Shown in pieces: positions 19,500 to 51,493 of a stretch of 64,000 nt of DNA. Below the pieces are notes generated by a model, which made no database searches, was not told the DNA's origin, and saw only the letters and a program-made list of their open reading frames with translations. Position numbers and translations under genes: made by a program. How positions within the stretch are numbered: the stretch's first letter is position 1; each line of letters starts with the position of its first letter. The DNA comes from an uncultured Candidatus Saccharibacteria bacterium (lineage in GTDB: Bacteria > Patescibacteriota > Saccharimonadia > Saccharimonadales > Saccharimonadaceae): assembly GCA_938033875.1 (NCBI GenBank), contig CALHKG010000015.1, positions 16,393 through 80,392 of the forward strand. Direction: 5' to 3'.

Positions 19500-19587
19500 G
19501 CGGGCGTGGCGGAATTGGTAGACGCGCTAGCTTGAGGGGCTAGTGAGCATTGCGCTCGTGGAAGTTCAAGTCTTCTCGCTCGCACCA
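19500..19587 (+). tRNA. tRNA-Leu (anticodon GAG), CCA encoded
   Basis: Acceptor GCGGGCG/CGCTCGC, D-arm GCGGAATTGGTAGACGC, anticodon stem CTAGC/GCTAG with loop TTGAGGG, long variable arm, T-loop TTCAAGT. Confidence 0.9.
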
Positions 19588-19655
19588 AACATATTGCAAT
19601 TATTGGATGAATTGTTTGTGATATGTTTTGTAAAATCTGATATAATAAAAGCGGT

Positions 19656-19729
19656 GGCGCGTTGGCGGAGCGGTTACGCAGAGGTCTGCAAAACCTTTTA
19701 GACGAGTTCGACTCTCGTACGTGCCTCCA
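19656..19729 (+). tRNA. tRNA-Cys (anticodon GCA), CCA encoded
   Basis: Acceptor GGCGCGT/ACGTGCC, anticodon loop CTGCAAA, T-loop TTCGACT, 74 nt. Confidence 0.9.
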
Positions 19730-19854
19730 ATTTTTTGATGAATAGTCCTGAGTATTGGGCTATTTTTTATTTTGCGAAATTGTACAATTTACTTAGCGAA
19801 TATAGTATAATATAAACAGTCTGGCGCGTAGGTGTCTGGATTGTATATAAATAA

Positions 19855-19940
19855 GCGCGAGTGGCGGAATTGGTAGACGCGAGGGACTTAAAATCCCTTG
19901 ACCAAAAGTCGTGCGGGTTCGATTCCCGCCTTGCGCACCA
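19855..19940 (+). tRNA. tRNA-Leu (anticodon TAA), CCA encoded
   Basis: Acceptor GCGCGAG/CTTGCGC, anticodon loop CTTAAAA, long variable arm, T-loop TTCGATT. Confidence 0.9.
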
Positions 19941-34925: not shown

Positions 34926-35000
34926 TGGCTGGGATGGAGGGATTCGAACCCCCGAATGGCGGGACCAGAACCCGCTGCCTTACCACTTGGCGACATCCCA
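34926..35000 (-). tRNA. tRNA-Gln (anticodon CTG), CCA encoded
   Basis: Reverse complement TGGGATGTCGCCAAGTGGTAAGGCAGCGGGTTCTGGTCCCGCCATTCGGGGGTTCGAATCCCTCCATCCCAGCCA. Acceptor TGGGATG/CATCCCA, anticodon loop TTCTGGT. Confidence 0.9.
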
Positions 35001-38475: not shown

Positions 38476-39519
38476 ATGGTTGACTTAGACGAATTGAAAA
38501 GAGAAATAGTTTTGGCGGTTTCGCAATCCAAATCTCCGCGTGAGTTTTTACGCGATCGACGACTTAGGGAATTGTATGATCAAATCAAGTCATTGCCGCC
38601 AGTTGAGCGTGGTCCGTTTGGCAAGCAGATTAACGAGCTGAAGCAAGCGATTGAACAGGCTATTGCTGCGCGACTGGAAGAGCTGGAAAAAGTTGACTTG
38701 AAACCGATTGACGTTACGGCGCCGATGGACGTGAATTCGTCCAAGCCTGAACTTTTGCCGAGCGAACAAGGCACGATTCATCCGCTGAGCGCTGAAATTG
38801 AGCACATTTCTGAGATCTTTAATCGCATGGGGTTTGTCACGGAAGAGTCCAGAGAGATTGACGATCAATTCCATATGTTCGAGAGCCTGAATTTTCCAAA
38901 AGGTCATCCAGCGCGCGATGATTACGATACGTTTATGACCGAGGAAACTGATTCTAATGGCGATCGTTTGATTGCACCGGCGCATACGTCTACTATGCAA
39001 AATCGCGTGCTAATGAAATATCGCGACAATTTGGAGAAAGGCGAGGCTATTGCCGCTATCGTTCCTGATCGCGTTTTCCGCAACGAAGATTTGGATGCGC
39101 GCCACGAGCATACGTTTTATCAAGTTGAAGGTGTGTACGTTTCACGCCGGGTTAATGTTGGCAATTTGATTGCCACGCTGCAAGAATTTTTGCAGGAATA
39201 TTATGGCAAGAAACTTGACGTTCGCGTTAATCCATTCTACTTTCCGTTCACTGAGCCTAGCTTCGAGTTTGCGTTAAGTTGTCCGTTTTGTGAAGGAAAA
39301 AATCCTGATTGTAAAGTCTGCTCTGGTGAAGGTTGGATTGAGCTACTGGGCTGCGGAATGATTCATCCGAATGTCCTTCGGGCGGCACAAATTGACCCGA
39401 ATGAATATACGGGATTTGCTTTTGGTTGCGGAATCGACCGCTTGGTTATGATGAAGTATGGAATCGAAGATGTCCGTCATTTTGAAAGTGGCAAATTGGA
39501 TTTTTTGGAACAATTTTAA
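38476..39519 (+). CDS. pheS: Phenylalanine--tRNA ligase alpha subunit
   Basis: 347 aa. Class II motifs (HPARD, FRNE, GFAFGCGIDRL). Confidence 0.95.
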   Translation: MVDLDELKREIVLAVSQSKSPREFLRDRRLRELYDQIKSLPPVERGPFGKQINELKQAIEQAIAARLEELEKVDLKPIDVTAPMDVNSSKPELLPSEQGTIHPLSAEIEHISEIFNRMGFVTEESREIDDQFHMFESLNFPKGHPARDDYDTFMTEETDSNGDRLIAPAHTSTMQNRVLMKYRDNLEKGEAIAAIVPDRVFRNEDLDARHEHTFYQVEGVYVSRRVNVGNLIATLQEFLQEYYGKKLDVRVNPFYFPFTEPSFEFALSCPFCEGKNPDCKVCSGEGWIELLGCGMIHPNVLRAAQIDPNEYTGFAFGCGIDRLVMMKYGIEDVRHFESGKLDFLEQF

Positions 39520-39524
39520 GCAAT

Positions 39525-40157
39525 ATGAAACTTCGACAGATTAAGGATTTTTTGTGTAAGAATCGCCTTCAGGCGCTCTGCATTCTTAATGGTGTCGTTT
39601 TGGCTGTGGGCTTGATCGTGGCGATGCTGCTTTCTGATGATACTCGGTGGACGAACTGGAGCTTGAGTAGATTGGGCGAAACCACCTCGAACCGTTTGTC
39701 TGCATTTTCGTTCAATTCGGGAGTATTTTTATCTGGTTTGATTATGGGGATGATTGGATTTTTTATGAATCGTGGTTATCTTAAACTTGGTCAAATTCGC
39801 TCTGCTCGGATATCTGGCTGGATACTTTCATTGTTTGCGATTTGTATGATAGGAGTGGCGCTTTGTCCGAACGATACGATGCACGCGGCGCATTTTGTTT
39901 TCTCGCGCGGCATCGTGATATTGATGGTACTTTTGATGTTTATTTTGCCATCGAGTTTGAGCTATTTAACTCATCGTGAGCGAATCTCATCTTTCAGTTT
40001 TCCGATTTTTGCGGCAATTATAGCGGCGCAAGGTTACGCGATGGGCAAGTTTTGGTTTGTGATAGTAGAAGTTTTATTGGGAATTTTTGCGACGATGTGG
40101 CTAGTCCTGGTTTGCCGTCGAATGGAACTTAAATTGTCCGACCTGAAAACTTCGTAA
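39525..40157 (+). CDS. Hypothetical polytopic membrane protein
   Basis: 210 aa, ~6 TM. Starts 5 nt after the pheS stop. Confidence 0.5.
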   Translation: MKLRQIKDFLCKNRLQALCILNGVVLAVGLIVAMLLSDDTRWTNWSLSRLGETTSNRLSAFSFNSGVFLSGLIMGMIGFFMNRGYLKLGQIRSARISGWILSLFAICMIGVALCPNDTMHAAHFVFSRGIVILMVLLMFILPSSLSYLTHRERISSFSFPIFAAIIAAQGYAMGKFWFVIVEVLLGIFATMWLVLVCRRMELKLSDLKTS

Positions 40158-40175
40158 AATGCTATAATTACTTCA

Positions 40176-40390
40176 AAAGGAGTAATTATGAATCACACAA
40201 TTTTTGACGACATCGTATCTGGAAAAATGAAATCTTGGAAGATTTGGGAAGATGAGAAATTCCTAGCATTTTTAACACCGTTTCCAAATACGCCGGGCTT
40301 TACCGTGGTGATTCCGAAGCAGAATCCGGGCGATTACGTATTTTCTTTGGACGATAATTTATATTCCGAAATGATGCAGGCAGTGAAAAA
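40176..40390 (+). repeat. Direct repeat copy 1 (215 nt, identical to 41885-42099)
   Basis: Base-by-base comparison gives 215/215 identity at offset 1709. Covers the SD plus the first 203 nt of the HIT ORF. Weaker similarity continues to ~40410. Confidence 0.95.
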
Positions 40391-40562
40391 AGTTGCTGGT
40401 ATTTTGGAAGCGGTAAGTTGGACTTTTTGGAACAGTTTTAAGGAGCTATCGCACACGATAATAGTAGTAGCTCAAAAACTCGTAATAAAAGAGGCAGTTC
40501 TGTGTGCCGATAGAGAATTTGTTGCAGCGAGAGAGATCGCTAAAAAAGATAGGAGGAGGTAA
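40188..40562 (+). pseudogene. Truncated/chimeric HIT gene (5' duplicate lacking the histidine triad)
   Basis: The first 68 codons are identical to the intact HIT gene at 41897. Then an unrelated 56-codon tail with no HxHxH-type motif. Confidence 0.8.
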
Positions 40563-40563
40563 A

Positions 40564-41886
40564 ATGGATACACAACAATTTGACGCACTCATCATTGGTT
40601 TTGGCAAAGCTGGCAAAACATTGGCGGTAGCGCTGGCAAATGCGAAAAAAAAGGTAGCGCTAGTGGAGCGGTCGCCAAAGATGTATGGCGGCACCTGTAT
40701 TAATATTGCTTGTATTCCTACTAAGGTGCTAGTCAATGCAGCCGAACATCATCAAAGTTTTGATGAGGCGATGGCGCATAAGACAACAGTGGTAGCGCGG
40801 TTGAATGAGAAGAACTATCATATGCTTGCGGATCGTGAAACAGTGAGCGTCATTGAGGGTGAGGCATCGTTCGTAGATGATCGTACTGTGAAGGTTGTGG
40901 CGGGTAGCGACGAGCTAGTAGTTAGTGCACCGCAGATTTTTATTAACACCGGTGCGGAATCAATCATCCCAGATATTCCAGGTGTTGATAAGCCGTTTGT
41001 GTATACTAGTACTGAATTGCTGGATAGAATGACGCAGCCAAAACAGCTAGCTATCATTGGTGGCGGTTATATTGGGTTAGAATTTGCCTCAACTTATGCC
41101 AAACTTGGTACAAAAGTAACAGTATTTGAGAGGGGCGATGCTCTGCTTGCACGTGAAGATCCAGCAATTGCTCGGGCTGCTACTGAAGCATTGCAGGCAC
41201 AGGGTATTGAGATTGTGTTTAGTGTGGATGTGACAGCGATTGAGGGTGAGTCTACTGCGACGATTCGCACAGTAAATCATGATGATTACGCTGGTTATGA
41301 TGCGGTTTTGATGGCTACGGGCCGTCGCCCGGCAACGATGAGCTTGAATTTACCAGCTGCTGGTGTAGCGACGGATGAGCGCGGGGCAATTGTGGTTGAT
41401 GAAACACTTCGCACTAGTCGGTCGCATATTTGGGCAATGGGCGATGTAACGGGCGGGCCACAATTTACCTATGCGTCGCTGGACGATTTTCGGATTGTGA
41501 GAAGCCAGTTGCTGGGTGACGGTCTGTACACTCGCGCCAAACAAAAAACCTTGCCGTACGCGGTCTTTATGCAAACGCCGCTAGGTCGGGTGGGTATGAC
41601 AGAGGCTGAGGCGCGTGCGACGGGGTGCGAAATTATCGTAAAAGAGCTGCCTGCTATGGCGATTCCACGCCTGCATGTTGATAATGCTACAACAGGATTG
41701 CTGCGTGCGGTGATTGATGCAAACACTGAACAAATTTTGGGTGCTAGTTTATTGTGTCGTAACTCACCAGAAGTCATTAATATTATCAAAACTGTAATGG
41801 ATAATGGCCTGCCATATACTGTGCTGCGTGACCAAATATTCACTCATCCAACGGTGAGTGAGGCATTAAACGATTTATTTACATAA
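40564..41886 (+). CDS. rclA: Class I pyridine nucleotide-disulfide oxidoreductase, RclA/YkgC-like
   Basis: 440 aa. IIGFGKAGKTLA dinucleotide motif, redox CxxxxC in YGGTCINIACIPTK, second GGGYIGLEF motif, C-terminal FTHPTVSEALNDLF. AGGAGGAGG SD before ATG 40564. RclA subfamily assigned from memory of E. coli RclA, not verified. Confidence 0.75.
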   Translation: MDTQQFDALIIGFGKAGKTLAVALANAKKKVALVERSPKMYGGTCINIACIPTKVLVNAAEHHQSFDEAMAHKTTVVARLNEKNYHMLADRETVSVIEGEASFVDDRTVKVVAGSDELVVSAPQIFINTGAESIIPDIPGVDKPFVYTSTELLDRMTQPKQLAIIGGGYIGLEFASTYAKLGTKVTVFERGDALLAREDPAIARAATEALQAQGIEIVFSVDVTAIEGESTATIRTVNHDDYAGYDAVLMATGRRPATMSLNLPAAGVATDERGAIVVDETLRTSRSHIWAMGDVTGGPQFTYASLDDFRIVRSQLLGDGLYTRAKQKTLPYAVFMQTPLGRVGMTEAEARATGCEIIVKELPAMAIPRLHVDNATTGLLRAVIDANTEQILGASLLCRNSPEVINIIKTVMDNGLPYTVLRDQIFTHPTVSEALNDLFT

Positions 41887-42099
41887 AGGAGTAATTATGA
41901 ATCACACAATTTTTGACGACATCGTATCTGGAAAAATGAAATCTTGGAAGATTTGGGAAGATGAGAAATTCCTAGCATTTTTAACACCGTTTCCAAATAC
42001 GCCGGGCTTTACCGTGGTGATTCCGAAGCAGAATCCGGGCGATTACGTATTTTCTTTGGACGATAATTTATATTCCGAAATGATGCAGGCAGTGAAAAA
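41885..42099 (+). repeat. Direct repeat copy 2 (215 nt)
   Basis: Identical to 40176-40390. Confidence 0.95.
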
Positions 42100-42355
42100 G
42101 GTTGCAAATATCTTGGAAAAAGCCTTTGATACGCCGCGAGTGGCATTGATTTTTGAAGGGACGGGTGTGGCGCACGTTCATGCCAAGTTGGTGCCGCTGC
42201 ATGGCGATCTGGCTAGCCAAACTGATGTGTGGAGTAAAGAGACTGAGTTTAGTGAAGTGTATCGTGGCTGGCTAACGACTGCAGAAGGTCCAAAAATGGA
42301 TGACGCTCAATTGGATGAAATTCAGGCACGAATTTTAGCCGTGCAAGGTAAATAG
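41897..42355 (+). CDS. HIT family protein (variant triad H-V-H-A-K)
   Basis: 152 aa. HIT-like N-terminus (IFDDIVSGK...FLAFL.PFPNTPG..VVIPK) and AHVHAKLVP in place of HxHxHxx. Confidence 0.78.
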   Translation: MNHTIFDDIVSGKMKSWKIWEDEKFLAFLTPFPNTPGFTVVIPKQNPGDYVFSLDDNLYSEMMQAVKKVANILEKAFDTPRVALIFEGTGVAHVHAKLVPLHGDLASQTDVWSKETEFSEVYRGWLTTAEGPKMDDAQLDEIQARILAVQGK

Positions 42356-44466: not shown

Positions 44467-45804
44467 ATGACTGAAGCGCTAGTCAATGATATCATTGTAC
44501 GTCCGGCAAGGGCGGACGATTTCGATTTCGTCGCGGATCTTATGATCCGGGCGCTCACACCGTTTTATGACGGTGACCACTACGCACACGCACGGCGTAT
44601 CTTTGATACGCACATGGCAGGCGGTGTTGACCGCGTCGGCCAGTTCTCGGCCGGACAGCACATGTTCATCGCCGAGAGTGATGGGCAACCCGTGGGTGTC
44701 ATTCATGTTGTCAACAAGAAACAGGGGACTGTCAAGATCAGCCCTCTCATTGTTGACACGGCATACCGAGGAAAGATGGGCGTCGGAAGCGTGTTGCTCA
44801 AGCACGCTGAAGATTTCGCCCGCAGCCTCGATGCTCGACAACTGTACTGCACTGTCGCGTCGCCGAACCAGAAGGCGCTTCAGTTCTTCCTCCGGAAGGG
44901 TTTCCTCGTCACTGGCACGGCTCGCAACCACTACAAGATGGGGGTCGATGAGCACATGCTGTACAAGCAGCTCGTTGACGAGGCGGGGTTCGACTCGCCG
45001 AATATCTCTGTGGTTCCGTTTAACGAGAGTCAGCACGCCGACAGCGCGCGAGCTCTCATCCTGTCGCAGACGAGTGACGACTTCGAAGGAGTGGACGACA
45101 GTTGGGTTGACGCCCTTTTCGCTGGCTACCGTCGTATGGAATCTGGCGACGTCAACAACAAGTTCAAGATCATCTTTGTAGCTGAGTGCAACGGTCAGGT
45201 TGTTGGTGTCGCTGGTGTGACCCCGAAGAAGGGGCAGCCTATCAAGCTGATGCCTCTCGTGGCGAAGTCGGAAGCAGCTTTTGAGGCGCTCATTATCGAC
45301 CTTCAAGGGCTGTTGGAGGATTACGGTCGCAAGCTGTACATCCACCTCGTCCCTGAGCCATGGCAGGTCGTCTGTCTCCAGCGTCACGGCTGGAGCCTGG
45401 AGGGCGTGTTCCCGGGAGGGTATGCGCCTGCCAGCGTCGTTCAGCAGTGGGGAATCAGTCTCAACAAGAAAGGAGTGTCTATGCGTAAGATGCGCATCAA
45501 GCGTCCATACTACGACGCAATCATGTCCGGCAAGAAGACTCTCGAGGTGAGAGTCGGCTATAACAGCATCAAGCGGCTGAAGGCTGGTGAGCTGCTACAG
45601 CTCGAGACCGGTCACACATCGGGCGTGGTACGGATCAAGTCGATACGTATTTACCGTAGCTTCGCCGACATGCTGGCGGCTGAGCCGTGGCAGCAGATCG
45701 TGCCGCAGGCAGAGAGCGAGAGGGAGGCTCTCCGTCTCCTTCGTAAGATCTACCCTGGCCACAAGGAGAATCTTGGTGTTCACGTCATCGAGGTTCAAAA
45801 GTAG
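44467..45804 (+). CDS. GNAT-GNAT-ASCH fusion protein, compositionally foreign (high GC)
   Basis: 445 aa. First GNAT has the acetyl-CoA motif YRGKMGVGSVLL. A second GNAT-like domain spans ~190-330. The C-terminal ~105 aa form an ASCH domain (MRIKRPYYDAIMSGKKTLEVRVGY...GELL). Hand counts of 37/60 and 33/60 G+C versus 28/60 in a uvrA line. Long spurious ORFs in other frames are typical of GC-rich DNA. Confidence 0.75.
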   Translation: MTEALVNDIIVRPARADDFDFVADLMIRALTPFYDGDHYAHARRIFDTHMAGGVDRVGQFSAGQHMFIAESDGQPVGVIHVVNKKQGTVKISPLIVDTAYRGKMGVGSVLLKHAEDFARSLDARQLYCTVASPNQKALQFFLRKGFLVTGTARNHYKMGVDEHMLYKQLVDEAGFDSPNISVVPFNESQHADSARALILSQTSDDFEGVDDSWVDALFAGYRRMESGDVNNKFKIIFVAECNGQVVGVAGVTPKKGQPIKLMPLVAKSEAAFEALIIDLQGLLEDYGRKLYIHLVPEPWQVVCLQRHGWSLEGVFPGGYAPASVVQQWGISLNKKGVSMRKMRIKRPYYDAIMSGKKTLEVRVGYNSIKRLKAGELLQLETGHTSGVVRIKSIRIYRSFADMLAAEPWQQIVPQAESEREALRLLRKIYPGHKENLGVHVIEVQK

Positions 45805-47552: not shown

Positions 47553-48452
47553 CTAATAATCCAGGACTATCGTCGCCTTTACTTGTTTTAGAATTGCGTT
47601 CATGTTTGCGACGTTTATAGTTTTCGCTAGGTCATTTCTGGATAGTGGCGTAGCGGTTTGTTGATAAAAATATATGGGCACTGAAATGTAAAATGGGTCA
47701 GACGTGAAAGATTCGGCAAGGTTTTTTAGGTCGGTTGCGTGCGAGGATATGTTAAAGTTTTGTAAATATGTCTGTATAGTTTCACTTGAGCTCAGTTGAG
47801 CAAGGTCTGTATTTTTTACGGTGTAGGTTTGGCTGGTGTAATTGCCATCATAGTACGCTATAAACTTTCCTGGGCTGGACGGATAGGATGAGATTTTATC
47901 AAAACAAATGTCACGCACTAGATCTAAAAGTATTGGGTATGTGCAGAAAAATGCGGCAGTCAATTCATCGCTGGCGTCAGCAATTTCTATATCAATCTTA
48001 ACGTCTGTAAAATCCTTCGGACTATGACTGATTTTAAGAGGAGAAATCTTAGATTTTGGGTGTGAATTGCTGGGAGTGGTTTTTTGACTATCGATAAAAT
48101 ATTTTTGACAAAGAGCGAGCTGCTCTTGTAATAGCGTCATGTCTGCTATATCAATGTTGGATTGCATCTCGGCTTCTATGTGTGAGATGGACTGTTGAAT
48201 AAGAGACGCCTCAAAAGGCGTAATATCGTTGATGGTTTTTTCAAATAATGCATTAGACTCGCTTGTGAATAGTGCGGACGTAAAAAATACGCTTGATTCG
48301 CTAGTCGTGCCATCCAATTCCCCAGTGAAAGCTCGGTTGCTGCCAGCTTTTTCCGTTTCCTTTAAGAATCGCCTAATAATCAGATGCTCAAACAAGTGGC
48401 ACGTGTCGTGGTCTGCTGGTAAAGAATATGCTGAATGCAAGTTGTGGATCAT
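47553..48452 (-). CDS. Hypothetical protein with N-terminal HxxEH motif
   Basis: 299-aa ORF. HLFEH near the N-terminus resembles the inverted zincin motif of M16 peptidases, but the protein is far shorter than M16 enzymes. Assignment is tentative. Confidence 0.45.
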   Translation of the reverse strand: MIHNLHSAYSLPADHDTCHLFEHLIIRRFLKETEKAGSNRAFTGELDGTTSESSVFFTSALFTSESNALFEKTINDITPFEASLIQQSISHIEAEMQSNIDIADMTLLQEQLALCQKYFIDSQKTTPSNSHPKSKISPLKISHSPKDFTDVKIDIEIADASDELTAAFFCTYPILLDLVRDICFDKISSYPSSPGKFIAYYDGNYTSQTYTVKNTDLAQLSSSETIQTYLQNFNISSHATDLKNLAESFTSDPFYISVPIYFYQQTATPLSRNDLAKTINVANMNAILKQVKATIVLDY

Positions 48453-48493
48453 GAGTTTATTATATCAGTATGAAAGTTAGCCTAAATCTTATA
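48451..48493 (+). repeat. Orphan duplicate of the pheT promoter-proximal region and first 8 codons
   Basis: 48461-48493 matches 48971-49003 at 32/33 positions (TATATCAGTATGAAAGTTAGC[C/T]TAAATCTTATA). Weaker similarity extends back to 48451/48961. Offset 510 nt. Confidence 0.85.
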
Positions 48494-48837: not shown

Positions 48838-48979
48838 GTCTGAAGAGAGGAGTGCCTTTGAGGATTATCTCCCGCTTGTTCAAGGATGGCTGTATTTTGC
48901 CCTAGAGCAGTTTTACCTTGGTTATTTATAGTTTTCTAAGGTCGATTACCTGCCGGTAAAATGATATAATTATATCAGT

Positions 48980-51493
48980 ATGAAAGTTAGCTTAAATCTT
49001 ATAAAACAATTGATTAATTTTGAGTTGCCGTCAGTTGACGAGTTGGTGTCGCGGGTAAATCAGCAACTTGGTGGTGTCGAGGAAGTGATTGATCTGAAGG
49101 CCAAATATGGTGGCGCGCGCATTGTGCGGGTTGTTGAATGCGAAAAACATCCGAATGCGGATCGTTTGAGCGTGACTAAAATTGACGATGGTGGCGTAGC
49201 GGACGCTCCAAGGGATGGCAATGGTTACGTGCAAGTAGTTTGCGGTGCGCCGAATGTTCATGCTGATATGTGGGCAATTTGGTTGCCGCCAAAAAGCACC
49301 GTCCCAGCAAGTTTTGATGACGCCGAGCCGTTCGTGCTGGATGCGCGACCGCTGCGTGGAATTCTAAGCCAGGGCATGCTGGCGGCGGCTGACGAGCTGG
49401 CGATTGGTACGGATCACGAGGGAATTATTGAGATCAATGAGCGTGATATTCCGGCTGGCGTTACACTTCAGGCTGGTGCGAGCTTTGCGGAAGTGTTTGG
49501 GCTGGATGATTACGTGCTGGAAATTGAAAATAAGATGTTTACGCACAGGCCGGATTGTTTTGGGCAACTCGGTGTGGCGCGCGAAATTGCTGGCATTTTT
49601 CATCAGCAGTTTAATAGTCCTGACTGGTATAATGCTATTCAAGAATTCGCAGATAGCGATGGCTTAGAGCTTGAAGTGTTTAATGAAGCCAATGAGCTTG
49701 CACCCGCATTCTCTGCGATTGCTATAAAAAATGTAGATATTCATCCAAGCCCGTTGTGGTTGCGATGTCAATTAGTTGCAATGGGCGGAAAGCCAATTAA
49801 CAATATTGTTGACGCAACGAATTATGTGATGTTTATGACGGCGCAGCCGACTCATGCTTATGATTATGACAAGTTGCGCGGGCATAAACTCGGCGTGCGA
49901 ATGGCGCATGATGGCGAAAAAGTTGGTTTGCTTAACGGCAAGGAATATGAATTGACGGCTGACGATATTGTGATCGCTGACGGCGAAGGTGTGATTGGGC
50001 TAGCGGGAATTATGGGCGGCGTTGATACGGAAGTTTCGGCTGAAACGAAGAATATTGTCCTTGAATGTGCCAATTTTGATATGTACGCGCTACGTCGTAC
50101 GGCTATGCGTCACGGAATTTTTACAGATGCGCTGACCCGTTTCAATAAGGGACAGTCGCCAGCACAAATTGACCCTGTCTTAAAATGGTTAATTGGTATG
50201 GTTGGTGGTGAGCAAGCTAGTCCTACGCTATTTAAGAATCATTCTTCATTGCGACAAGTGTTGGTCGATGGTAAGCACTGGTACGGTGGATTGTTGATTC
50301 CTAAAAGGTTTGTCGAAGAACGTCTGGGTGTTGACTTTGCCGAGAATGAGATTGAGACACTACTAAAGAATGTTGAATTTATCGTTGACGATGGTAATAA
50401 ATATGACGAAGCTGGCGTGATGGTTTACAGTCCATTTTGGCGAACAGATATTGAGCTTCCTGAGGATATTGTTGAGGAAGTTGGGCGATTATACGGCTTT
50501 GATAGACTGCCGCGCCATTTGCCAGAGCGAAGCATTAAGCCTGCGCCGAAGAATGAGTGTCGTGAATTGAAACAGAGAATTCGCCAAAGTTTGTCGCGAG
50601 CTGGAGCGAACGAAGTTTTGACGTATAGTTTCGTTCATGAGCGAGTTTTGAAAAATTCCGAGCAAGATCCGAGCCGTGCGTATCGCTTGAGCAATGCGCT
50701 TAGTCCAGACTTGCAATATTACCGAATTAGCATTTTGCCGAGTTTGCTGGATAAAGTTCACGCCAATATAAAATCTGGACATGACGAATTTATGCTGTTT
50801 GAAATTGGTAAAATTCACGATAAAAAATTAGGATTTAACGATGAGAATTTGCCGATTGAAAAGACTTTCATTGACGGAGTTTATGCGAATAAAAAACCTC
50901 AAGTTGGCGCGCCGTTTTACAAGGTGAGAAAAATTGCTGAAAGGCTGATGAAGGATTTGAGTGTTGAGGTTGATTTTGTGAAGATTACGGAATCTGACAG
51001 CGACGTTCCAGCGCCATTTGATGCGAAACGCAGCGCTTGGATTGTGGCGAATAACGGCGACAATTTGGGGATTGTTGGCGAGCTGGTTTCATCTGCTCGA
51101 CGCAACTTCAAATTGCCAGATTACACGGCAGCGTTTTCTATTGATATTGAAAAATTGCAGAAAAATCTGAGTAAAAATCAGGGCTATAATTACCAGCCGT
51201 TAAGTCGTTTTCCGTCGACTGCCAGAGACATTTCATTGAAAATGGATTCGAATGTTGATTATGCGAAGGTTTATGCTTGCGCTGAAGAAGTTGCGAAAAA
51301 ACACGGTGAGTTACAAATTAGTATAACGCCGATTGCGATATATCAGCCAAAAAATGACGATTCGACAAAAACTGTAACTTTGAATGTAAAATTTACGAGC
51401 ACTGAGCGGACGCTGGAAGATAAAGATATTGCGCCGATTATTGAGGAGATTGCCGCGATGGCTGCGGAAGAATTCGACGCCGCTCAGGTTTAA
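48980..51493 (+). CDS. pheT: Phenylalanine--tRNA ligase beta subunit
   Basis: 837 aa. N-terminal tRNA-binding OB domain (CEKHPNADRLSVTKID), B3/4, B5 and C-terminal FDX-ACB domains. Confidence 0.95.
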   Translation: MKVSLNLIKQLINFELPSVDELVSRVNQQLGGVEEVIDLKAKYGGARIVRVVECEKHPNADRLSVTKIDDGGVADAPRDGNGYVQVVCGAPNVHADMWAIWLPPKSTVPASFDDAEPFVLDARPLRGILSQGMLAAADELAIGTDHEGIIEINERDIPAGVTLQAGASFAEVFGLDDYVLEIENKMFTHRPDCFGQLGVAREIAGIFHQQFNSPDWYNAIQEFADSDGLELEVFNEANELAPAFSAIAIKNVDIHPSPLWLRCQLVAMGGKPINNIVDATNYVMFMTAQPTHAYDYDKLRGHKLGVRMAHDGEKVGLLNGKEYELTADDIVIADGEGVIGLAGIMGGVDTEVSAETKNIVLECANFDMYALRRTAMRHGIFTDALTRFNKGQSPAQIDPVLKWLIGMVGGEQASPTLFKNHSSLRQVLVDGKHWYGGLLIPKRFVEERLGVDFAENEIETLLKNVEFIVDDGNKYDEAGVMVYSPFWRTDIELPEDIVEEVGRLYGFDRLPRHLPERSIKPAPKNECRELKQRIRQSLSRAGANEVLTYSFVHERVLKNSEQDPSRAYRLSNALSPDLQYYRISILPSLLDKVHANIKSGHDEFMLFEIGKIHDKKLGFNDENLPIEKTFIDGVYANKKPQVGAPFYKVRKIAERLMKDLSVEVDFVKITESDSDVPAPFDAKRSAWIVANNGDNLGIVGELVSSARRNFKLPDYTAAFSIDIEKLQKNLSKNQGYNYQPLSRFPSTARDISLKMDSNVDYAKVYACAEEVAKKHGELQISITPIAIYQPKNDDSTKTVTLNVKFTSTERTLEDKDIAPIIEEIAAMAAEEFDAAQV

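Follow-up and report, generated by a model that had tools for sequence, protein, structure and literature searches.

An RclA-family reductase gene between duplicated HIT gene starts in oral Nanosynbacter: a probable old recombination scar in a variable chromosomal slot

How does a gene come to stand between two identical copies of the start of its neighbour, and does the identity of the copies reveal when it arrived? These questions are raised by a locus in the 64-kb window analysed here (the whole stretch of 64,000 nucleotides, from an oral Candidatus Nanosynbacter, Saccharibacteria/TM7), in which the gene for a 440-aa reductase of the RclA family, termed RED below, lies between a truncated and an intact copy of a HIT gene. 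The truncated upstream HIT open reading frame (ORF) is termed HIT'. An original prediction made from this DNA read the arrangement as a recent single-crossover (Campbell-type) integration. The analysis that follows favours, as a reasonably probable account, an old scar of the homology-facilitated illegitimate recombination (HFIR) type, lying in a variable slot and homogenised by gene conversion, around a horizontally spreading gene that resembles reductases of hypothiocyanous acid (HOSCN).

Base-by-base comparison confirmed that the maximal exact direct repeat measures 215 nt (40176-40390 and 41885-42099, identical at 215/215 positions) and that it contains the Shine-Dalgarno sequence and HIT codons 1-68, as had been predicted. 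When mismatches are allowed, a repeat search extends it to 234 nt at 98% identity (40176-40409 and 41885-42118). This is the sole long high-identity repeat in the window, and it exceeds all others by a wide margin in both length and identity, which excludes a chance origin. The features of the locus are as follows; arrangement types I-IV and HIT alleles M and W are described further on.

38476..39519, + strand: resident pheS, 347 aa (TIGR00468, 245 bits, above cutoff), the left border of the variable pheS-HIT slot
39525..40157, + strand: DUF998 membrane protein gene (Pfam PF06197), the resident slot cargo in type I, also found within the slot of types II and III
40176..40390, + strand: upstream repeat copy, 215 nt exact, with true HIT homology continuing to 40409 as the M allele
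40188..40562, + strand: HIT', a truncated ORF of 124 aa in which HIT residues 1-74 are fused to read-through of a pheS remnant and spacer
40401..40409, + strand: illegitimate junction with microhomology ATTTTGRAA, located by aligning the type II junctions with the HIT M allele and the pheS ends of type IV
40401..40441, + strand: foreign pheS remnant, the last ~13 codons with stop TAA at 40439-40441, recognised by pheS identity and colinearity with type IV
40442..40563, + strand: pheS-RED intergenic spacer of ~121 nt, donor-derived, carrying the RED Shine-Dalgarno sequence AGGAGGAGG and colinear with the 127-nt spacer of pheS-RED-HIT genomes
40564..41886, + strand: RED, 440 aa, with CINIAC at 40696-40713 (residues 45-50) and the HPTVSE His-Glu dyad at 41845-41862 (residues 428-433)
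41885..42099, + strand: downstream repeat copy, exact 215 nt, starting inside the RED stop codon
41897..42355, + strand: intact HIT gene, 152 aa (PF01230), with HVH at residues 93-95 (42173-42181)

The claims that the upstream HIT copy had lost its catalytic motif and that the downstream copy was intact are both borne out. The Pfam HIT match of HIT' is limited to residues 14-76 and the HVH motif is lacking, whereas the downstream gene carries the full domain (PF01230, 3.1e-10, residues 14-100) together with HVH. Between the repeats there is, again as predicted, a single gene with its own strong Shine-Dalgarno sequence (AGGAGGAGG), the 440-aa ORF, and the stop of HIT' lies 1 nt ahead of its start.

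In order to place this arrangement among relatives, loci were collected with a pheS protein scan, one genome per GTDB species, which gave 80 loci (designated, like some further contigs, by L-numbers); each GTDB locus is a different species. All 80 belong to Candidatus Saccharibacteria, mostly Nanosynbacter, and pheS synteny is kept across them. Two groups are distinguished: group 1 is the window's own clade (pheS 97-99% aa identity) and group 2 is more distant (83-85%). Mapping of the neighbouring genes in the 80 loci showed the pheS-HIT interval to be a variable slot. In type I the order is pheS-DUF998-HIT, found in seven group 1 genomes (L005, L011, L014, L017, L020, L021 and L022); this is the uninterrupted junction of membrane gene and HIT that the original prediction had proposed to look for in other strains. 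Type II is the arrangement of the window itself (DUF998, HIT', pheS remnant, spacer, RED, HIT), shared by L001, L006, L009, L010, L012, L015, L018 and L019, whose flanking genes have 92-97% DNA identity to the window. Among these, L018 is a complete genome (strain TM7-008, NZ_CP157587), L006 is a 702-kb chromosome and L001 is an 85-kb contig from a different human oral metagenome, 99.79% identical to the window over 12.5 kb. Type III, in the group 1 loci L004, L016, L025 and L026, has the order pheS-DUF998-RED-HIT with 43 nt of the upstream repeat left, and type IV consists of pheS, a 127-nt spacer, RED and HIT, without DUF998, in 13 group 2 genomes. The contigs that bear the RED locus originate from human oral metagenomes.

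Three further loci (L031, L057 and L063) hold both RED and an adenosine deaminase gene in the slot. The deaminase (360 aa; PF00962, 1.2e-86) lies between RED and HIT (8547-9629 in L057), and this insert is further evidence of a cargo hotspot at the pheS-HIT interval. The slot of the close relative L023 (5077-6814) holds neither DUF998 nor RED; it contains two paralogous ORFs of ~285 aa in divergent orientation, for which no Pfam match was found.

The upstream repeat copy had been thought to run on into unrelated sequence. This does not hold, as the sequence beyond it is a pheS 3' remnant followed by a spacer. Positions 40401-40442 are 86% identical to the end of the resident pheS (39479-39520), stop codon included, and 40398-40563 is colinear with the pheS end and spacer of the 13 type IV genomes at 90-93% identity. 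This colinearity indicates that RED came inside a chromosomal pheS-RED-HIT segment of a related Nanosynbacter; as judged from these alignments, the donor is a related Nanosynbacter chromosome with a type IV-like segment of this kind.

Next, the point at which the two sequences meet was defined. The motif ATTTTGRAA is common to HIT (ATTTTGGAAAAAGC) and to the donor pheS end (CATTTTGAAAGCGG). The common group 1 HIT allele reads ...GTTGCTGGTATTTTGGAAAAAGC... at the join and the type IV pheS ends read ...CATTTTGA(A/G)AGCGGTAAGTTGGAC..., and the type II junction has the sequence ...GTTGCTGGTATTTTG(G/A)AAGCGGTAAGTTGGAC.... Read in this way, the alignment places an illegitimate join between HIT at about codon 74 and the last ~13 codons of pheS, at a microhomology of 6-9 nt. 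The same junction is present in 9/9 type II sequences, that is, in the window and in the eight type II loci named above. Moreover, types II and III share spacer features unlike those of type IV, namely the loss of 2 nt, one additional A ahead of the RED ATG and several substitutions. The shared junction and these group-specific features together point to a single founding event, from whose product type III derives by a 190-nt deletion, the endpoints of which show no clear microhomology. Type III as an independent insertion was ruled out, since it shares the group-specific spacer indels with type II.

The two ends of the insert therefore differ in kind, with extended homology on one side (the HIT 5' part with its Shine-Dalgarno sequence) and a microhomology of a few bases on the other (HIT at about codon 74 and the pheS tail), which is the pattern of HFIR. 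This process was defined for naturally transformable bacteria (PMC3240628), and PMC10187176 and PMC10633639 report Saccharibacteria to be naturally competent. In addition, the tail of the upstream copy (GCTGGTATTTTG) has the allele of the recipient group, GCTGGT, and not the type IV allele GCNAAT. A recipient-type tail next to the junction favours a join of recipient HIT with a donor pheS tail over the integration of a circle made of donor DNA only.

The insertion is neither an assembly artefact nor recent. The original prediction had taken the zero divergence between the repeats as a sign of recency; the same junction, however, is found in at least eight species-level Nanosynbacter genomes whose flanks are ~5% different, and the two copies differ at 0-10 of the 215 positions elsewhere. 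Within single genomes they match at 215 positions in the window and in L019, 214 in L015 and L018, 211 in L010, 208 in L001 and 205 in L009, whereas between genomes the HIT 5' copies are 94-98% identical. Several variants are private to one genome and yet occur in both of its copies. In the window this is A at repeat position 203 (T in all other sequences), in L018 these are A40, T146 and T163, and in L015 it is G102. Private substitutions shared by both copies are the signature of intragenomic gene conversion, which, as judged from these variants, keeps the two HIT 5' copies of the window identical. The zero divergence of the window reflects homogenisation and not age, and the locus warns against dating an insertion by the perfection of its repeats.

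Closely related strains show how the copies change. L001, in the window's strain cluster, has 7 mostly synonymous differences between its upstream and downstream copies, and L003, in the same cluster, is a mosaic with 3/7 of these. Of the differences between the window and L001, 23/26 fall within 39318-40407 (the pheS 3' end, DUF998 and HIT'). This clustering indicates a recent strain-level recombination import, as read from the distribution of the variants, with its right edge at the insertion junction.

The alleles of HIT explain where the exact repeat ends. After coding-sequence position ~203 the downstream HIT turns to a divergent W allele (42100-42355), whereas the upstream tail has the common M allele, and for this reason the exact repeat stops at 215 nt. 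Compared with the W allele of the window, the other group 1 HIT 3' parts have 75-79% identity, that of L017 92% and that of L085 94%. HIT is dimorphic in the window's clade, the alleles switching near coding-sequence position 204, with W in the window, L001, L002, L017 and L085 and M in all other close relatives, and the flanks of the M-allele relatives are ~95% identical to the window despite the divergence of the HIT 3' part.

HIT' itself has the character of a decaying pseudogene, as judged from its state in relatives. The 124-aa ORF is intact in 6/9 type II genomes and broken in L006 (45 aa), L015 (77 aa) and L018 (109 aa), and 10 codons are left in type III; an exact-protein look-up of the 124-aa form returned no record. 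A role as a selected gene or as a translational-coupling leader for RED was also considered and dropped as a conserved feature, given the same 3/9 broken type II copies and the 10 codons of type III.

Excision of RED by recombination between the repeats, which the original prediction had also raised, is plausible, and by inference the type III repeat of 43 nt should stabilise RED against loss by this route. The RED-less form was sought in the window's strain cluster by an exact HIT protein look-up, which returned RED-bearing contigs only. A metagenome-wide pattern scan (DUF998 end, 215 nt and W-type HIT) gave one contig, L085, a ~95%-identical type I relative and not the same strain.

A comparison of RED with its flanking genes addresses how the gene has moved between species. 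Between groups 1 and 2 the mean DNA identity is 95.5% for RED, 74.5% for pheS and 77.2% for aqp; within group 1 the means are 98.7%, 94.9% and 95.9% respectively, and within group 2 they are 96.9%, 89.2% and 88.7%. The synonymous divergence (dS, Nei-Gojobori method) between the groups is 0.14 for RED, >2 (saturated) for pheS and 1.2 for aqp, and within group 1 it is 0.037, 0.25 and 0.15. The synonymous divergence of RED is thus 4-15 times below that of the flanking core genes. Since the low divergence extends to synonymous sites, protein constraint is not the explanation, and a dS so far below that of the flanks means that the common ancestor of RED is much younger than the genomes that carry it. 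Furthermore, in a neighbour-joining tree built from 7 kb of upstream flank, genomes of types I, II and III are intermingled, so gain of RED by recombination, its loss, or both must occur often. Together, these comparisons show RED to be an accessory cassette that spreads horizontally between Nanosynbacter species at one fixed slot. In public data, 3,510 sequences fall into the protein cluster of RED at 99% identity. The GC content of RED (47.6%, against 44% for the window) was considered as a sign of foreign origin and was too weak for use.

What does the cassette encode? The predicted RclA-like identity stands at family level. RED has the Pfam domains Pyr_redox_2 (PF07992, 7.5e-63), Pyr_redox (PF00070, 1.8e-25) and Pyr_redox_dim (PF02852, 1e-23). 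Its best NCBIfam model is RclA (601.5 bits), followed by HOSCN reductase MerA (536.6) and PRK07251 (530.5), with others far below. Against structures in the PDB the bit scores are 472 for RclA (6KGY), 391 for Streptococcus pneumoniae Har (8AJJ), 388 for Staphylococcus aureus MerA (8AJK), 228 for true MerA and at most 190 for Lpd. RED is 52% identical to Escherichia coli RclA (6KGY) over 437 positions, its redox pair C45-INIA-C50 aligns to the RclA motif GGTCINIGCIPTK, and the N-terminal GFGKAGK lysines and the HPTVSE dyad are present. Mercuric reductase (true MerA) fits poorly, with a TIGR02053 score of 307 against a cutoff of 454 and no HMA match; RED has no C-terminal Cys pair (it ends ...ALNDLFT), and its only cysteines are at 45, 50, 355 and 398. 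On this evidence RED is assigned to the RclA/Har family of class I flavoprotein disulfide reductases. The longest RED ORF starts at GTG 40504 (40504-41886, 460 aa), and this is the form in public gene calls. RclA homology begins at residue 5 of the form that starts at ATG 40564, and the strong Shine-Dalgarno sequence precedes that ATG, so the 460-aa annotation is probably 20 codons overlong.

The lactoperoxidase/thiocyanate system yields HOSCN, a major host oxidant, in saliva and plaque, where Saccharibacteria live as genome-reduced epibionts. E. coli RclA reduces HOSCN at a near diffusion-limited rate, and both of its cysteines, C43 and C48, are needed for activity; four of four tested homologues of 47-49% identity protect against HOSCN, and oral streptococci that have HOSCN activity carry homologues (PMC9335216). 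Given the RclA-family similarity, the cysteines, protective homologues that are less identical than RED and the oral habitat, HOSCN reduction is the most likely activity, and RED is probably a HOSCN reductase, a putative assignment. The first activity described for RclA was Cu(II) reduction, and the enzyme also shows weak turnover of N-chlorotaurine (PMC9335216), and RED lies under the NCBIfam equivalog cutoffs, as detailed below; both facts could be taken to suggest that RED acts instead on Cu(II), on chloramine or reactive chlorine, or in a general disulfide or Lpd-like role in a genome-reduced cell. Such a role seems quite unlikely, because the Cu(II) activity of RclA is very slow beside its HOSCN turnover (PMC9335216), the four protective homologues are more distant from RclA than RED is, the scores of Lpd, glutathione reductase and MerA are under half of the RclA score, and the habitat is oral. 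Around RED there are pheS, DUF998, HIT', HIT and an alpha/beta hydrolase, and none of the rcl operon partners RclR, RclB and RclC; according to PMC9335216, only Enterobacteriaceae have the complete operon. No paper linking Saccharibacteria with RclA or HOSCN reductase was found in the literature searched. If the assignment is right, the presence of an RclA-type reductase in some close relatives and not in others, together with its horizontal spread, would make RED a concrete host-adaptation trait in a poorly understood phylum. Cultured strains with RED (e.g. TM7-008) and relatives without it appear to exist.

The favoured account can now be stated in full. A type I chromosome would have received a fragment of a type IV-like Nanosynbacter chromosome that ran from ~40 nt before the end of pheS through the spacer and RED into the start of HIT; natural transformation with linear DNA is the most likely route. 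The right end of the fragment would have been anchored through homology in HIT, and its left end would have joined illegitimately inside the recipient HIT, at about codon 74, at ATTTTGRAA, as in HFIR; the product has the order DUF998, HIT', pheS remnant, spacer, RED, HIT. This would have been a single event long ago, after which the module may have spread among Nanosynbacter species by ordinary homologous recombination, some lineages being trimmed to type III by the 190-nt deletion in HIT'. The two HIT 5' copies would swap sequence by gene conversion, through which those of the window became identical over 215 nt. RED would act as an NAD(P)H/FAD enzyme that uses its Cys45/Cys50 dithiol to reduce HOSCN from salivary peroxidase to thiocyanate, giving the epibiont tolerance. 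Of these elements, the anatomy of the locus, the donor arrangement, the common junction, the concerted evolution, the horizontal spread and the assignment to the RclA family are shown by the sequence comparisons; the HFIR/transformation route, the direction of the event and HOSCN as the substrate are inferred.

Several observations weigh against this account. Among the sampled type IV genomes no RED is closer than 96.4% to that of the window, which places the actual donor outside the sampled genomes. No donor-type variants are left in the downstream HIT 5' copy; repeat positions 111-129 were read for residual ones, and these sites are polymorphic in the donor group too. With donor variants erased by conversion, the right-hand crossover and the polarity of the event are not directly readable. 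Between 38000 and 43600, a search for promoters and terminators found sites no more often than in shuffled controls, and the spacer had none. RED scores under the equivalog cutoffs of all three of its best models (RclA 601.5 versus 740, HOSCN reductase MerA 536.6 versus 650, PRK07251 530.5 versus 537), which makes it a family member and not a curated equivalog. Finally, the 215/215 identity may be overstated through consensus collapse if the window was assembled from short reads; the identity of 214/215 in the complete genome L018 shows that near-identity is real biology.

Other histories would also yield an insert between repeats. The part of the Campbell reading that stands is the geometry, since a circle carrying a HIT 5' fragment and rclA, integrated by one crossover in HIT, would leave the insert flanked by direct repeats (215-234 nt) equal to the homology segment, and re-integration of a circle that had been released by repeat recombination could give just this structure. 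The pheS remnant and the recipient-type tail fit HFIR better: a donor circle predicts a donor-type sequence on the junction side of the upstream copy (although later conversion could mask this), and the insert is purely chromosomal (pheS tail, spacer and RED), with no plasmid, phage or integrase genes. Recency, the other part of that reading, conflicts with the distribution of the junction and with copies that differ in sister strains and other species, so that a recent single-crossover event is improbable. A related idea is that the type II module is a self-targeting mobile cassette which needs no recombinase because it carries its own HIT 5' arm: repeat recombination would free either a linear fragment or a circle made of RED and one arm, and a competent Nanosynbacter would take up the freed molecule and re-integrate it at any HIT, restoring the same structure. 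We regard this as unlikely. If true, the low synonymous diversity of RED across a flank divergence of ~25% would reflect an ongoing gene-specific sweep of HOSCN resistance in human oral Saccharibacteria.

The event may also be read in the opposite direction, with pheS-RED-HIT as the ancestor and a type I fragment, pheS-DUF998-HIT(1-222), inserted by HFIR anchored in pheS. The illegitimate end would then lie 45 nt before the stop of the resident pheS, and the pheS remnant would be the recipient's own. This reading needs a single classical HFIR step, gives the observed order exactly, and fits both the RED-HIT adjacency, which is the same as in type IV, and the local mosaicism of pheS 3', DUF998 and HIT' that holds 23/26 of the differences from L001. 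It is less parsimonious, however, because no pheS-RED-HIT arrangement without DUF998 was found among ~20 group 1 genomes, and because the remnant, spacer and RED are group 2-like (90-96%) in a 75% background, so that RED would have been imported first in a two-step history. The DUF998 genes of type I genomes of the same group are, in addition, orthologous at 95-97% identity, and the reversed order of events seems a rather poor prospect. An assembly artefact, the outcome that would have undone the original prediction, would be either a chimeric join of pheS-DUF998-HIT and pheS-RED-HIT variants, both of which occur in nature, or the consensus collapse of a near-repeat. Short-read contigs of other samples (L002, L003 and L084) do break exactly at the repeat, and the ends of L003 and L084 match the break points that a repeat of this kind would cause in a k=119 graph. 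The same structure is nevertheless present in L001, in the complete genomes NZ_CP157587 and OX335598 and in a 689-kb contig; HIT position 222 and the pheS tail have no overlap of k-mer length that could cause a mis-join, the microhomology being 9 nt only, and the copies of the complete genome L018 match at 214/215. An artefact is hardly credible. The old HFIR-type scar thus remains the preferred reading.

A few observations concern other parts of the sequence. A possible RNA element in the pheS-RED spacer was dropped, as its folding score was not significant (z = -1.6) and no Rfam match was found in the spacer. An Rfam scan of the window returned tRNAs only; these include a cluster of Leu(GAG), Cys(GCA) and Leu(TAA) at 19500-19940 and a lone tRNA-Gln(CTG) at 34926-35000. 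A gene at 44467-45804 (+ strand) encodes a 445-aa GNAT acetyltransferase with a C-terminal ASCH domain, and its sharply outlying GC content (56.5%, against 44% for the window) suggests horizontal acquisition. A 43-nt direct repeat of 91% identity lies downstream of NUDIX genes (48451-48493 and 48961-49003, 510 nt apart).

None of the individual mechanisms at this locus is new, and each has a counterpart in known systems. The HFIR events of Acinetobacter, S. pneumoniae and Pseudomonas stutzeri (PMC3240628) likewise have one homologous anchor, here HIT, one microhomology end and no recombinase gene, and they occur in competent organisms, as the phylum of the window is reported to be. The present case differs in that the mechanism is deduced from a natural scar and not observed, in that the donor would be a sister lineage rather than truly foreign DNA, and in that the illegitimate join lies inside the anchor gene itself, which leaves a direct duplication of 222 nt.

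The displacement of effector-immunity modules at type VI secretion system (T6SS) and Rhs loci, described in Vibrio cholerae, resembles the window locus in its fixed slot between conserved genes, in the addition of a module beside older cargo and in the gene-end remnants left behind; HFIR has been proposed there as the mechanism of module displacement that leaves orphan remnants (PMC5361080). The cargo of the window, by contrast, is a putative redox defence enzyme and a membrane protein and not toxin-immunity pairs; there is one displacement step only, and the duplicated arm evolves in concert. This last property recalls the concerted evolution of tuf and rRNA genes, as identity within genomes exceeds that between genomes and private variants occur in both copies. 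The repeat here is just 215-234 nt long, one of its two copies is part of a pseudogene, and the copies of L001 and L009 are not fully homogenised. The locus would thus offer a clean natural example of HFIR, of cassette exchange at a fixed slot and of short-repeat concerted evolution in a naturally competent bacterium of the Candidate Phyla Radiation.

Lastly, RED shares with RclA, Har and S. aureus MerA (6KGY, 8AJJ and 8AJK) a three-domain architecture of ~440 aa, the GFGKAGKTLA N-terminus with its lysines, the CxxxxC pair, the C-terminal HPxxSE dyad and the host-associated (epithelial or oral) habitat described for the family. It differs from them in scoring below the equivalog cutoffs, in lacking RclR, RclB and RclC and in its position between pheS/DUF998 and HIT, and also in its setting, as an accessory cassette driven by recombination in a genome-reduced epibiont of the Saccharibacteria.

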